A stretch of DNA of 64,000 bases, from NCBI RefSeq assembly GCF_055900595.2, contig NZ_CM148325.1; one strand, given 5' to 3'. Made by a program: the position numbers. This document shows, in pieces, positions 6,001-12,000 of this stretch. Each line of letters opens with the position of its first letter. The first letter of the stretch is position 1.

Positions 6001-9000
6001 CTGTTGCCAAATGGCATAAAGGCTGGATCCCACCGGTTACTACTGCCGCAAGACTTCCTTCAGTGTCCCGGGTAAGCCGCTGGTTGATGCCCTGGAGAAT
6101 AATCAGGGGTGAAGAAAATTATGCTTTCCGATTTATTAGTCTGATGTGTGAAAAAGAACCGGAGTTGAAAATAGCGCAGCAACTGGTACTCGAGTTCTAC
6201 CGTATTCTGAAAACCTAAAATAAATCACAGCTAAGCAGCTGGTTCACTCGGGTCCACGAAAGCGGCTCAGCAGAACTTCGGTGCGTAGCTGCGGGGATGG
6301 AAGCTGATGCTGCGGCTATATGTGAGGCAATCAGCAGTCGCTGGAGTACTGGTGTTGTCGAAGGTCATGTAAATCGCCTGAAGGTGCTGATACGCCAGAT
6401 GTATGGTCGAGCCGGACTTGAACTACTTAGGCGGAGGGTAATGAGTCCACTGGCATGAAAATCTTCACCTAGGTTGAGGAAGAGCCACTTTTGCACTGTT
6501 CGTGACAGTATGGCCTTTATGTACTCACTTTGTTACCGGTAGCTGAATCATCACTACCGTGCTGCAAATGGTGGTGAACAGCATCAATTGTGGAATGAAT
6601 GTTGCCGAAGCGACCAATGCGCCTCGTTTCCACCATCAGTGGTTGCCGGACGAGCTGCGTGTTGAAAAGGGTTTAGTCCGGATACGCTCAAGCTGCTGGA
6701 AGCAAAAGGTCAGAAAGTGGCGCTGAATGAGGCGATGGGCAGCACGCAAAGCATTATGGTTGGGTCGGATGGTGAGTTGTACGGCGCATCCGACTCGCGC
6801 TTGGTGGATGATTTAACGGCGGGGTATTAATTGACATCCCCCGGCGCAGTGTGCCGGGGGATAATGGTTTTATGCGGTCAATAATCGTCCGGGATTATCG
6901 ATACAGAGTTTTTTGAGGATCGTTTTATCGACGCCGCGCTCCGCCAGATAGGCCAGAAAAACATCTGGAACAAATCCCCAGCCATTACCGCCATTTTTAG
7001 CCCACATTTGTTTAAGGAAGACATCGTGGCTGAGAACAAGCTGATCGGCGTATCCCAACTCAATGAGATGAGCGACGGCATCGGCAGTCTCCTGCACCCC
7101 TGGCGCTATTCCCTCTTTCGGGAAGGTAATGTCTAGGCCAATCATGTCGAATTCCAGCCAGACACCCTTATCAAGCATTTTCCGCTGATACGCCACGTCT
7201 TTTCCTGACGGATCCGAGTGTGCGAGAGAGACTTTATTTGGCGAGACGCCCATTTCACCTAACACAATGTCGAGTACTTCATCACCGCGACGAAGCCAGC
7301 CCGGCATGTGAATATTCATCGCCACATGAGGATTGTTAATCTGTGCCAGCGAGGCAGCCCGCAAGCTGTTATGCTCGGCTTCGGTAAATGTCGGTGAGAC
7401 ACCTATTTCACCGATCATTCCGGCACGAATATCCGTATCGCCAATCCCTTGATTCAATTCTTTATCAATCGTTGCCGCCAGTTCATCAACCGTTTTATGA
7501 ATTCTCTGGCTTTCAAATTTTTCCAAGTAGGGACCGGAGGAAGCAACAATATTCAGACCTGTTTTTAATGCGACTTCTCGTAATGCCTGCGCATCTCGTC
7601 CGATAGACTCAGACCCTGTGGCATCAACAATGGTGCGACCACCGAGCGAGATAAAGTTATTAATTTCGAAGATCACATCTTCAATAGGTTTGCGGTCCAT
7701 ATTATCAGCGCAGCAATAAGGTGATCTTACCCAGCAATAGTGGACACGCGGCTAAGTGAGTAAACTCTCAGTCAGAGGTGACTCACATGACAAAAACAGT
7801 ATCAACCAGTAAAAAACCCCGTAAACAGCATTCGCCTGAATTTCGCAGTGAAGCCCTGAAGCTTGCTGAACGCATCGGTGTTACTGCCGCAGCCCGTGAA
7901 CTCAGCCTGTATGAATCACAGCTCTACAACTGGCGCAGTAAACAGCAAAATCAGCAGACGTCTTCTGAACGTGAACTGGAGATGTCTACCGAGATTGCAC
8001 GTCTCAAACGCCAGCTGGCAGAACGGGATGAAGAGCTGGCTATCCTCCAAAAGGCCGCGACATACTTCGCGAAGCGCCTGAAATGAAGTATGTCTTTATT
8101 GAAAAACATCAGGCTGAGTTCAGCATCAAAGCAATGTGCCGCGTGCTCCGGGTGGCCCGCAGCGGCTGGTATACGTGGTGTCAGCGGCGGACAAGGATAA
8201 GCACGCGTCAGCAGTTCCGCCAACACTGCGACAGCGTTGTCCTCGCGGCTTTTACCCGGTCAAAACAGCGTTACGGTGCCCCACGCCTGACGGATGAACT
8301 GCGTGCTCAGGGTTACCCCTTTAACGTAAAAACCGTGGCGGCAAGCCTGCGCCGTCAGGGACTGAGGGCAAAGGCCTCCCGGAAGTTCAGCCCGGTCAGC
8401 TACCGCGCACACGGCCTGCCTGTGTCAGAAAATCTGTTGGAGCAGGATTTTTACGCCAGTGGCCCGAACCAGAAGTGGGCAGGAGACATCACGTACTTAC
8501 GTACAGATGAAGGCTGGCTGTATCTGGCAGTGGTCATTGACCTGTGGTCACGTGCCGTTATTGGCTGGTCAATGTCGCCACGCATGACGGCGCAACTGGC
8601 CTGCGATGCCCTGCAGATGGCGCTGTGGCGGCGTAAGAGGCCCCGGAACGTTATCGTTCACACGGACCGTGGAGGCCAGTACTGTTCAGCAGATTATCAG
8701 GCGCAACTGAAGCGGCATAATCTGCGTGGAAAGCTTCTTTCATTCGCTGAAAGTGGAATGTATCCATGGAGAACACTTTATCAGCCGGGAAATAATGCGG
8801 GCAACGGTGTTTAATTATATCGAATGTGATTACAATCGGTGGCGGCGGCACAGTTGGTGTGGCGGCCTCAGTCCGGAACAATTTGAAAACCAGAATCTCG
8901 CTTAGGCCTGTGTCCATATTACGTGGGTAGGATCACCGCACTCTTGACATAAGAGTGCGGTCCGTGGAAAACGGAGTTGAAAAAATGGTGTCTGAAAGAA

Positions 9001-12000
9001 GGTACCATCATTGCGATGACAAACACTTTGGCGTGGATAATGTAATTAATTGCTGAAATTGACCGTATATGCGGTAAGACTCATATCAGTATCAGGTCCG
9101 GTTAATTGCTGATACTGACATAAACTTTTTACAAAAGGATGAATGCAGAAGGTTACTCTAATGGCCAGAGTGATGACAATGATGGTCAGACGTTGACCTG
9201 CAGAAACTGCATTTTAATTGGTCTATAAAGTCTGCAAGAGGAATCAGGGCCAGATCAGTGAGTCTTATCGCGGCCCGAAGCTATGACTGAAAGAAGGCTG
9301 GATACAGAATTGCAACAATTTGGCAATGTCAGAACACAGAAGCTTTGCAAGCAGGTGAAAGGTTATGTCTAGCAAAAGGAGTATATCAGAATACATCTAC
9401 TGATGTATAAAACACAACAATAGCTTCATGATATATAAATACGTGATGACGAGTGGTACTCCGCATGGTTATTTAACTTCTCAGCACCACTAATGATCCT
9501 GAGCAACTTCGTATTTGGGCCATTGCCATGGAGTAGAAAGCTGTGTCTGAGAATGCAGAATTTGAGAAAAGAATTCGCTTTCTTGGAGAGCTTCTGAAAA
9601 TGGCACGCTAACAACGTTTTGTTAAAAAATGTGAATCACTTGCCGAGGCTGCATTTTCTATTCGAGGAGAATGTTGACGTAGATATTACAGAAATCTCAG
9701 CGCATCAGGATAAACTGCTACCTTAGGTCAACCACCAAAAGAAAATACAATACGTCCAGTTTGTATGCCTTTAATAACACATCTTTTAAATGTTGAAGAA
9801 TTATCCCGCCTGCTGAAGAACGTTGCTCTGAGTGTGATAAACCTTTTTATTCTTGATGATGTCAGCGAGAAGATGGAATATATCCCCGACTGGGTCGTGG
9901 TTACCCGGTTAAACATCTGGTGGCGCTAATAAATCTGGCAAGTCACATTCTGTTGAATGCTGTGACAGTGCCTTACCGAGAGAGCGAAATTGTGGTGTTC
10001 TAGTGCATAGTCGCCACCATTCCGGATAATTCTATTGCGTTGTTTTACAAGTTCTTTTACAGCGCAGATCTGTCGTTGACGTTGAATCAATAGCCTGGAT
10101 TTCAGAACACAATGCCCGTTTGCTGGTTGGTCCGGCAGTAGCATTAATTCATTATCTGAATGAAATGTGTCAATCCACAGAAACCGCTGTCAATGACGCA
10201 TTTTGTCGGACGTTAACACGAGGAAGTCTGGCTATTCCACAATGCCATCTTCTTTCGTAATGGATTGAGAATGCTGGATTTTTAATTATATTACGCGCAG
10301 TATTGATCGTGTAAATGTTTTGCGGTCAGCAATGGTGGGGGATCCATTGTTCTGTTCAATGAATACCATCATACAATTGAATCAGGAGTCGGTATGATGA
10401 TTTTGGTGACGGGGGGCGCACGGAGCGGGAAGAGTCGCCACGCAGAGGCGCTTATTGGGGACTCTTCACAGGTTCTGTATATCGCCACCTCGCAAATCCT
10501 TGATGACGAGATGGCTGCACGGATAGAACATCATCGGCAAGGCCGTCCGGCGCACTGGCGCACGGTGGAGCGTTGGCAACATCTTGATGAATTAATTCAT
10601 GCAGACATTAACCCGCATGAAGCTGTGTTGCTGGAATGCGTTACCACAATGGTGACTAATCTGTTGTTTGATTATGGCGGCGATAAAGACCCTGATGAAT
10701 GGGATTATCAGGCGATGGAACAGGCGATTAATGCTGAGATTCAGTCGTTGATTGCTGCCTGCCAACGTTGCCCCGCAAAGGTTGTATTAGTGACTAACGA
10801 AGTGGGAATGGGGATTGTGCCGGAGAGTCGTCTGGCACGACATTTTCGTGATATTGCCGGGCGGGTAAATCAGCAGCTGGCCGCTGCGGCAAATGAAGTA
10901 TGGCTGGTGGTTTCGGGTATTGGAGTAAAAATCAAATGAGTAAATTATTTTGGGCGATGCTCTCATTTATTACGCGTCTGCCTGTACCGCGTCGCTGGTC
11001 CCAGGGACTGGATTTCGAGCATTATTCTCGCGGTATTATTACTTTTCCTTTAATTGGATTATTGCTTGGCGCGATTAGCGGGCTGGTCTTCATGGTGCTG
11101 CAGGCATGGTGTGGCGTACCACTGGCGGCACTGTTTAGCGTACTTGTGCTGGCGCTGATGACCGGGGGATTCCACCTAGACGGCCTCGCCGATACCTGTG
11201 ATGGCGTATTTTCTGCACGTAGCCGCGATCGCATGTTGGAAATCATGCGTGATAGCCGTTTAGGTACCCACGGCGGTCTGGCATTGATTTTTGTTGTACT
11301 GGCAAAGATTTTGGTGTTAAGCGAGTTGGCTCTGCGTGGCGAACCGATCCTTGCATCGCTGGCGGCAGCATGTGCGATCAGCCGCGGGACTGCCGCATTA
11401 TTGATGTATCGTCATCGTTATGCCCGGGAAGAAGGGCTTGGCAATGTGTTCATTGGCAAAATTGATGGGCGACAAACCTGCGTCACACTCGGCTTAGCCG
11501 CTATTTTTGCTGCCGTATTATTGCCGGGTATGCATGGTGTGGCTGCTATGGTGGTGACGATGGTGGCGATTTTCATCCTCGGTCAGCTTCTCAAACGTAC
11601 GCTGGGCGGGCAAACCGGCGATACGCTGGGAGCAGCCATAGAGCTTGGTGAACTGGTCTTCCTGCTGGCACTGCTATAAAGAGACGTGACATGCAAACAC
11701 TTGCCAATTTACTGAATACGATCCCTGCCATCGATCCTGCCGCTATGTCGCGTGCACAACGGCATATTGACGGGTTACTCAAACCTGTTGGTAGCCTGGG
11801 AAGGCTGGAGGCGCTTGGCGTACAACTGGCGGGAATGCCGGGGTTGAATGGCATACCGCATGTGGGCAAAAAAGCGGTACTGGTTATGTGTGCCGATCAC
11901 GGCGTCTGGGAGGAAGGGGTCGCTATTTCCCCAAAAGAAGTGACAGCCATTCAGGCTGAAAATATGACCCGCGGAACAACCGGCGTGTGTGTGCTGGCAG

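Follow-up and report, generated by a model that had tools for sequence, protein, structure and literature searches.

The tract preceding cobU in Escherichia coli as insertion-sequence debris beside a probable decayed cbiG-cbiP remnant

De novo synthesis of vitamin B12 has, in the long-standing account, been lost in the E. coli lineage. In the cbi-cob operon of Citrobacter, Salmonella and Klebsiella, which runs from cbiA through cbiP and on to cobUST, cbiP is a frame of ~510-525 aa that ends at the start of cobU, as an earlier note on the present DNA had stated for Salmonella, and cbiG lies further upstream. The edge of the K-12 prophage CP4-44 carries the pseudogenes yoeH, yoeG and yeeH, and plasmids of E. 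coli, Shigella and Salmonella carry IS66-family elements (tnpA-tnpB-tnpC), some with IS110-family insertions. We analyzed the DNA preceding cobU in a window of 64,000 nucleotides (contig NZ_CM148325.1, assembly GCF_055900595.2; one strand). The cbi-cob order is shared between this locus and the operon of the three genera. Unlike that operon, however, the window has lost the coding capacity, retaining ~48 codons of cbiG and ~50 of cbiP, decayed by stops and indels, and it holds island DNA in place of the cobalamin riboswitch and pocR.

The low GC content and the short, stop-interrupted frames described earlier from the sequence were both borne out: GC is 0.410 in 9000-10393, compared with 0.524 in cobUST, 0.538 in the IS3 copy to the left and 0.527 in the whole window, and across 8936-10393 no ORF exceeds 72 aa, with 17-34 stops per frame (498 codons) in all six frames. 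The real left limit of the tract is 8936, at the right end of the IS3 copy, rather than 9000. As judged from sequence similarity, most of the tract, ~1160 bases (8936-10097) or about 80%, is the wreckage of three insertion sequences, and the cbi-derived part is confined to the last ~296 bases (10098-10393). The features are as follows.

7722-8935, + strand: IS3 copy bordering the tract on the left, its orfB broken by an internal deletion of 44 nt
8936-9355, + strand: 3' part of an IS110-family element, comprising the transposase C-terminus and then the non-coding right end
9347-9907, + strand: IS66-family fragment with the last ~80 nt of tnpB, a spacer and the first 151 codons of tnpC
9902-10097, + strand: internal fragment of an IS4-family transposase (aa ~166-229 of 446) with one stop codon
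10098-10244, + strand: putative cbiG relic, codons ~89-136 of the truncated Escherichia cbiG ORF
10245-10393, + strand: cbiP relic, decayed 3' end of the cobyric acid synthase gene (last ~50 codons)
10265-10292, + strand: sigma-70 promoter-like site of cobUST, TTGAGA-16-TATATT, within the cbiP relic
10394-10939, + strand: cobU, an annotated 181-aa ORF and the first intact gene of cobUST

Strain HS30-1 carries an intact IS3 at the corresponding site; the bordering copy is 96.5% identical to it, with 44 gap positions, and is labelled 'IS3 family transposase, frameshifted' by PGAP. Immediately to its right, tblastn with an IS110-family transposase matched aa 281-337 of 339 (49% identity, E 3e-10), with stops present. 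These C-terminal ~55 codons (8936-9096) correspond to the K-12 pseudogene yoeH (8938-9096), and the fragment, collinear in K-12, is 65% identical in nucleotides to L084 3375-3801, reaching the right end of that element. Both the transposase and the 3' end thus place it in the IS110 family; the 5' three-quarters of the element are missing.

The IS66-family assignment follows from similarity to TnpC and tnpB, with bounds at 9347 and 9907, so that only a fragment is present. TnpC aa 1-151 of 511 matched by tblastn (47% identity, E 4e-23) a stretch, 9465-9908, that carries several stops and one frameshift; the fragment as a whole is 71% identical to L083 3001-3571 (E 6e-91), the 3' end of tnpB matching at the nucleotide level, and 364 plasmid records match it at 60-80% identity. 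The search for a complete element yielded no TnpA match and nothing past tnpC codon 151. Compared with the plasmid-borne IS66-family elements, the end of tnpB and the tnpC N-terminus are ~71% identical in nucleotides, whereas the fragment described here has neither end, no tnpA, no DDE domain of tnpC and little of tnpB. An IS110-family element is nested in an IS66-family element in both the window and plasmid pRHB15-C23_2; however, the insertion point is at the end of tnpB in the window and in tnpC in the plasmid. The K-12 pseudogene yoeG (9465-9997) covers the IS66 part and extends into the start of the IS4-family fragment.

The latter fragment was assigned by transposase similarity and is internal only: the intact transposase of pDEC5A-4 matched 9902-10097 by tblastn over aa 166-229 of 446 (70% identity, E 3e-22), plasmid sequences also gave tblastn matches to this fragment, PGAP annotates an 'IS4 family transposase' pseudo-CDS at 9902-10090, and K-12 yeeH (10004-10090) lies inside it. 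Two other assignments of this DNA were considered and rejected. One placed the cbiG N-terminus at 10025-10090 (TIPDNSIALFYKFF..., frame +0), and the other put cbiG interior at 10035-10100 in frame +2; in both cases the DNA is 70% identical in protein to the IS4-family transposase.

The comparison with the K-12 sequence upstream of cobU, proposed in the earlier note, showed that the two sequences are shared and collinear from 8936 to cobU. Within this stretch K-12 adds only IS5H, inserted at CTAG (10001-10004 in the alignment); K-12 also differs from the window in having no IS3 copy and other island content further left.

The insertion-sequence matches bear directly on the proposal that decayed coding sequence of cbiP, cbiO or other cbi genes makes up all of the 1.4 kb. 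Such an origin would agree with the low GC and stop-riddled frames throughout, and the last ~296 bases are indeed cbi-derived. Nevertheless, 8936-10097 matches IS110, IS66 and IS4 transposases (E 3e-10 to 4e-23), frames from 12 enterobacterial loci produced only chance-level tblastn matches there, and other Escherichia species share nothing left of ~10104; for that part the proposal is refuted, and for the whole tract it is extremely improbable. Similarity to known insertion sequences, which the earlier note had listed as evidence against a remnant of the lost cbi genes, thus occupies most of the length; the remnant falls as an explanation for 8936-10097 and survives for 10098-10393.

An origin as plain intergenic or regulatory DNA, never protein-coding and with protein-like frames due to chance, has a vanishingly small probability. 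A Pfam search of the six whole frames with stops masked and of nine single fragments found no family in any frame, only two weak and irrelevant matches below the family cut-offs, as this alternative would predict, but it is refuted by five independent significant coding homologies, each collinear with its source gene. The earlier suggestion that the tract holds pseudogene sequence, and is not truly intergenic, is fully supported. Functional content is unlikely in 8936-10264.

The assignment of the segment right of 10097 to cbiG passes through a longer ORF in relatives. Bases 10098-10393 are 97% identical to L085 7267-7562; in this E. coli locus the matching sequence forms the 3' part of an ORF of 136 aa, and Escherichia cbiG ORFs matched the window by tblastn with E 1e-17 to 3e-42; the truncated ORF is also present in E. 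marmotae and E. albertii protein records. The full ORF of L003, a divergent Escherichia locus, matches NCBIfam NF004463 (cobalt-precorrin 5A hydrolase, CbiG) over aa 1-118 (E 7e-23). The full Escherichia ORF is 45% identical to the CbiG-like protein P0045 (E 2e-29), in an alignment that stops at ...ALIHYL, and 40% identical over aa 1-114 (E 3.9e-13) to P0053, a full-length CbiG of 358 aa with the Pfam domains CbiG_N, CbiG_mid and CbiG_C, located in a cbiD-to-cbiP operon. The 53-aa cbiG fragment of the window itself gave no BLASTP alignment with P0045 and no NCBIfam or Pfam match; it is assigned to cbiG by its homology to the longer Escherichia ORF, which in turn matches CbiG. Similarity to true CbiG is demonstrable only to about 10158, and 10159-10244 form the zone of the cbiG/cbiP junction, so that the putative cbiG-to-cbiP deletion can be placed, on these alignments, to within ~90 bases.

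The peptide quoted in the earlier note, ALIHYLNEMCQSTETAVNDAFCRTLTRGSLAIPQCHLLS*, was located at 10141-10260 on the + strand, inside a 46-aa ORF with a TTG start (10120-10260). This peptide (ALIHYLNEMC...) comes from the cbiG N-terminal fragment and not from cbiP or cbiO; of the gene identities suggested, that of the cbiP 3' end held, at the nucleotide level. PGAP places a pseudo-CDS, 'cobalamin biosynthesis protein', at 10099-10260. Could this frame, or the ORF at 10120-10260, encode a functional CbiG-derived small protein? Several Escherichia species have uninterrupted full versions of 136-145 aa, and their dN/dS (0.5-0.66) is below 1. However, constraint is far weaker than in cobU (dN/dS 0.11-0.20), the window ORF is without the first ~88 codons, has only the TTG start and contains no recognized domain, the alleles differ through deletions, and PGAP calls a pseudogene. 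We thus consider a functional product very improbable.

For cbiP, the evidence lies in the nucleotides. A profile of five Escherichia upstream sequences, with the last 20 nt left out, matched the last 100-140 nt of cbiP, with 22 of 23 matches in Citrobacter and others being collinear (best E 1.8e-9), and a longer Escherichia profile reached E 2.6e-14. The window sequence itself scored z 10-13 against Citrobacter cbiP, with none of 500 shuffles as high, and weakly (z 1-2) against Salmonella and Klebsiella cbiP. The match is visible in an alignment of 12 sequences anchored at the cobU ATG (A1), the cbiP end of the relic aligning base for base with Citrobacter cbiP; in amino acids, FRNGLRMLDF*LYYAQY* of the relic aligns with VRKGLTPLDSDFHYAQYK. 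The relic contains two stops and several 1-2-nt indels, continues into the cobU ribosome-binding site and ATG, and keeps no open frame with the CobQ/GATase domains; the ~50 codons are a relic and not a gene. Protein-level searches, as the earlier note had suggested for CbiP, gave nothing convincing: frames upstream of cobU from 12 enterobacterial loci, covering cbiP and its preceding genes, matched the tract by tblastn at chance level (best E 0.04), no CbiO-sized or other cbi-region frame did better, and hmmsearch of all stop-to-stop fragments with a 62-sequence CbiP profile was not significant. A broad 62-sequence cbiP nucleotide profile gave E 0.68 with nhmmer; this diverse profile is less sensitive than the reverse search with the Escherichia profile. 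Thus, 10245-10393 represent, on nucleotide similarity, the decayed last ~50 codons of cbiP, detectable at that level only.

Relatives retain an older layout. In divergent Escherichia loci (L003, L005) and in E. coli (L085, L091) the order is pduA, pduF, pocR, cobalamin riboswitch, a cbiG N-terminal ORF of 136-145 aa, cbiP relic and cobUST, with pocR and the riboswitch upstream in the same order as in Citrobacter, Salmonella and Klebsiella. Of 5426 complete E. coli genomes, 644 (about 12%) have this layout, which is thus still segregating in the species, and the mosaic of the window is present at a coverage of at least 80% in 3445 genomes. In other Escherichia species similarity to the window starts only at 10104-10125, which makes the sequence further left lineage-specific. 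The insertion-sequence debris of 8936-10097 forms the inner edge of the island that adjoins cobU in most E. coli. This island is known as PAI-cobU in ExPEC and as the cryptic prophage CP4-44 in K-12.

The direct contact of the cbi-like segment with mobile-element debris, together with its low GC, could indicate that it arrived horizontally with the island or the insertion sequences instead of being inherited vertically. The segment, however, is collinear with cobU and enters its start codon in exactly the way seen for cbiP of Citrobacter, Salmonella and Klebsiella; it is also present in island-free Escherichia lineages (L003, L004, L005), and its place in pdu-type strains is behind pocR and the riboswitch, as in the ancestral operon. 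Horizontal acquisition is accordingly very improbable. We favor, with a probability of roughly 0.85, a graveyard of two layers, in which a remnant of the ancestral cbi genes (10098-10393) is joined to stacked insertion-sequence debris at the island edge (8936-10097).

The identity of every segment, its order and its collinearity with relatives are observed; from these we infer the order of events and the reason for retention of the cbiP end. An internal deletion would have taken out cbiH through cbiO together with most of cbiP and all but the N-terminal third of cbiG, leaving this third fused to the final ~50 codons of cbiP, and the fused remnant would have decayed afterwards. In most E. coli the island would then have displaced pdu, pocR, the riboswitch and the 5' part of cbiG. 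The three truncated insertion sequences may have been stacked through nested insertion and deletion: the IS110-family element would have entered the IS66-family element, tnpC would have been cut at codon 151, where it abuts the internal IS4-family fragment, and the latter would have come to abut cbiG at codon ~89. A later insertion of IS3 would have set the left bound of the tract in the strain of the window. The relic would thus represent a physical footprint of the loss of de novo B12 synthesis.

A consensus scan identified the promoter-like site TTGAGA-16-TATATT at 10265-10292 (10 of 12 positions), and its TTGAGA hexamer is kept in all five Escherichia sequences of A1. A constitutive RpoD promoter of cobUST with identical hexamers was reported from genomic SELEX in K-12 (PMC3946193); the predicted use of the site is based on RNA polymerase binding and the consensus match, both reported for K-12. 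The putative sigma-70 promoter and the cobU ribosome-binding site therefore appear, by position, to sit in former cbiP coding sequence, and the cbiP end has probably persisted because of them. An Rfam scan of 8800-10500 found no credible RNA family, and the covariance model of the cobalamin riboswitch (RF00174) had no match there even at E<=10; in L003 and L005 the riboswitch scores 109-111 bits, and it is annotated in L091.

It is conceivable, though rather unlikely, that the truncated cbiG ORF has been kept open for B12-responsive expression of cobUST or for a residual role of the CbiG N-terminal domain, and that island-type strains have been rewired. Its translation may, for example, protect cobUST against Rho-dependent polarity in pdu-type Escherichia. 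The cut made in cbiG by the island at codon ~89 may have ended B12 control and left cobUST dependent on the predicted constitutive promoter alone, which would have arisen within the cbiP relic. If true, pseudogene exaptation would here be documented as a means of regulatory rewiring.

The tract is an ordinary pseudogene stretch that is largely annotated already; the cbiG and IS4 pseudogenes in PGAP and the names of the K-12 insertion-sequence fragments are known, and nothing in it will surprise a specialist. No paper describing the cbiG relic or the cbiP relic was found in the literature searched, outside which Lawrence and Roth 1995 (J Bacteriol) falls. The PGAP pseudo-CDSs have identical coordinates (10099-10260 and 9902-10090) in M160133, a strain with 100% identity to window positions 1-9000; PGAP leaves the cbi gene unnamed there and annotates none of the cbiP relic, the IS66 fragment and the IS110 fragment, and in the K-12 record both cbi relics are unannotated. 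The gain for annotation is that the unnamed 'cobalamin biosynthesis protein' pseudogene is cbiG, and that yoeH is IS110-family, yoeG mainly IS66-family and yeeH part of the IS4-family fragment.

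The DNA directly upstream of cobU has a GC content of 0.41 (9000-10393), as compared with 0.52 for cobUST, 0.54 for the IS3 copy on its left and 0.53 for the whole window, and carries 17-34 stops in each frame, with a longest ORF of 72 aa, which confirms the lower GC and stop-interrupted frames described in the earlier note. The true left edge of this tract lies at 8936, where the IS3 copy (7722-8935) ends on the right. The proposal that the tract is decayed cbi sequence holds for 10098-10393, which consists of cbi relics, whereas 8936-10097 is insertion sequence (IS) debris; the weaker proposal of pseudogene sequence instead of true intergenic DNA holds throughout. 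Most of the tract is inert, the cbiP relic excepted, and its features are of known kinds and largely annotated already:

8938-9096: K-12 pseudogene yoeH (window coordinates)
9465-9997: K-12 pseudogene yoeG (window coordinates)
9902-10090: PGAP pseudo-CDS 'IS4 family transposase'
10004-10090: K-12 pseudogene yeeH (window coordinates)
10099-10260: PGAP pseudo-CDS 'cobalamin biosynthesis protein'
10394-10939, plus strand: cobU

To this annotation we add the naming of the PGAP 'cobalamin biosynthesis protein' pseudogene as cbiG, the recognition of a previously unannotated cbiP relic with a putative promoter inside, and the identification of yoeH, yoeG and yeeH as IS110-family, mainly IS66-family and IS4-family fragments, respectively.

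In other Escherichia lineages, similarity to the window starts only at 10104-10125. In the divergent Escherichia locus L003 and in E. whittamii (L005), the counterpart of 10098 to about 10244 forms the 3' portion of an uninterrupted 144-aa ORF, preceded by pduA, pduF, pocR and a cobalamin riboswitch (109-111 bits). Residues 1-118 of the Escherichia ORF match NCBIfam NF004463 (cobalt-precorrin-5A hydrolase, CbiG; E 7e-23), and the ORF is 45% identical (E 2e-29) to the CbiG-like protein P0045, the alignment stopping at ...ALIHYL. Exhaustive search turned up a full-length CbiG (P0053, 358 aa, with CbiG_N, CbiG_mid and CbiG_C), which is encoded in a cbiD-to-cbiP operon. Equivalents of the truncated ORF, 136-145 aa long, are also known from E. 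albertii, E. marmotae and a subset of E. coli, including the E. coli locus L085 (pdu operon, pduF, pocR, cbiG ORF, then cobUST), to which 10098-10393 is 97% identical. The window fragment alone (codons ~89-136) gave no direct match to NCBIfam models or, by BLASTP, to P0045, so that its assignment to cbiG is transitive through the longer ORFs, although the chain is strong. The peptide quoted in the earlier note sits at 10141-10260 and belongs to this cbiG-derived segment rather than to cbiP or cbiO.

The truncated cbiG ORF is open downstream of the riboswitch in two divergent Escherichia lineages, E. whittamii included (L003 5443-5877, L005 5432-5866), and in two E. coli (L085 7001-7411, L091 2982-3419), as well as in protein records of E. 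albertii and E. marmotae. Its dN/dS is 0.5-0.66, versus 0.11-0.20 for cobU, that is, relaxed but not clearly neutral. A third allele, on a metagenome contig with 1.66x coverage (L086 1782-2069), joins cbiG codons 1-25, the final 45 nt of the IS4-family fragment (window 10053-10097) and cbiG from codon 89; it is either a near-complete island excision or an assembly chimera.

Among 80 loci around CobU homologues, one genome per species, cbiP is a 510-525-aa frame ending at the cobU start in Citrobacter, Salmonella and Klebsiella, as the earlier note had stated for Salmonella. At the protein level, its idea of cbiP in the tract found no support (best tblastn E only 0.04; CbiP profile search not significant). 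At the nucleotide level, the homology of about 10245-10393 to cbiP is plain. A profile built from five Escherichia upstream sequences, excluding the last 20 nt (RBS), matched cbiP over its final 100-140 nt in 22 loci, every hit being collinear, with E values down to 1.8e-9 (2.6e-14 for a longer profile). The window's own 129 nt scored z 10-13 against Citrobacter cbiP, with none of 500 shuffles as high, and z 1-2 only against Salmonella and Klebsiella cbiP. In an alignment of 12 sequences anchored at the cobU ATG, TTCGTAATGGATTGAGAATGCTGGATTTTTAATTATATTACGCGCAGTAT in the window stands opposite TTCGTAAGGGACTGACGCCGCTGGATTCTGATTTTCATTACGCGCAATAT in Citrobacter amalonaticus cbiP; translated in the cbiP frame, the relic gives FRNGLRMLDF*LYYAQY* where CbiP has VRKGLTPLDSDFHYAQYK. 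A deletion in the ancestral Escherichia operon fused cbiG, cut after roughly codon 119, to the final ~53 codons of cbiP, with the junction located only to within 10159-10244.

The pdu-type layout (pdu, pocR, riboswitch, cbiG N-terminal ORF, cbiP relic, cobUST) is common to other Escherichia species and is therefore ancestral; in it, the riboswitch leader is followed by the start of cbiG, cbiA through cbiF being absent as well. Of the 5426 complete E. coli genomes, 644 (~12%) retain at least 80% of the stretch that runs from the end of pocR to cobU and includes the riboswitch and the entire cbiG ORF. By megablast of 8930-10393, the tract was found in 5403 of the 5426 genomes, and at least 80% of it, marking carriers of the IS mosaic, in 3445. 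In Raoultella ornithinolytica, L028 3270-3393 matches the Escherichia post-riboswitch leader (E 1e-16) upstream of a 344-aa ORF, itself before cbiP-cobU, which suggests that Raoultella likewise has a shortened, riboswitch-led cob locus. In Escherichia sp. E1V33 (L004 4703-5689), tmaR (yeeX), yeeA, sbmC and dacD adjoin the cbi relic, separated from it only by an IS3-like orfA remnant, and neither pdu genes nor island are present.

The sole strong sigma-70-like site upstream of cobU (TTGAGA-16-TATATT, 10265-10292) lies within the cbiP relic, and identical hexamers are given as the constitutive RpoD promoter of cobUST in K-12 (PMC3946193). TTGAGA is kept in 5/5 aligned Escherichia sequences, whereas the corresponding hexamers in Citrobacter cbiP are CTGACG and TTTCAT, each 4/6 versus consensus; the putative promoter thus appears to have evolved towards consensus from within coding sequence. 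Along with the cobU RBS, it probably explains why deletions and island insertions halted short of the cbiP relic. In pdu-type strains, cobUST may additionally be transcribed from the ancestral promoter under riboswitch control; no cobalamin riboswitch was detected upstream of cobU in the window, and this promoter is therefore lost in the window strain.

Within the IS debris, sensitive blastn of 8937-10110 against plasmids showed 9347-9907 to be ~70% identical to IS66-family elements. Relative to the intact element L083, what remains in the window is the 3'-terminal ~80 nt of tnpB, the spacer and tnpC codons 1-151; the TnpC segment (47% identity, tblastn E 4e-23) has several stops and a frameshift. 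To the left, 8936-9355 matches, at 65% nucleotide identity, the 3' end of an IS110-family element in plasmid L084, itself nested inside an IS66 element; the C-terminus of an IS110-family transposase matches here too (E 3e-10). Because the nucleotide match ends at 9355, the right end of the L084 element, this border appears to be a genuine insertion into IS66 tnpB; the 5' part of the IS110 element is absent in K-12 as well. The 9902-10090 segment comes from the interior of an IS4-family transposase, matching aa 166-229 of 446 at 70% identity (E 3e-22). Since internal gene parts are joined at the IS66/IS4 and IS4/cbiG borders, both are probably deletion junctions. A perfect 10-bp palindrome, CCGCACTCTT-gacat-AAGAGTGCGG, at 8936-8960, where the IS110-family fragment begins, accounts for a weak Rfam 'CRISPR-DR47' match; its stem is 17 bp in K-12, which lacks the IS3.

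K-12 is collinear with the window from 8936 to cobU, except for an IS5H in K-12 at CTAG 10001-10004, and in its record the boundary of cryptic prophage CP4-44 falls at ~10138. In ExPEC, 'PAI-cobU' occupies the site of K-12 CP4-44. E. coli strain M160133 matches window 1-9000 at 100% identity. The IS3 copy of the window has orfB broken by a 44-nt internal deletion around 8720, whereas the IS3 found at this position in strain HS30-1 is intact. Further left, the island (1-7721) contains an ISL3-family transposase pseudogene, a gamma-glutamyltransferase fragment, a truncated phosphotriesterase-related gene, an inovirus Gp2-family gene and zinc-ribbon genes, unlike the content of K-12 CP4-44 (yoeA, flu and others).
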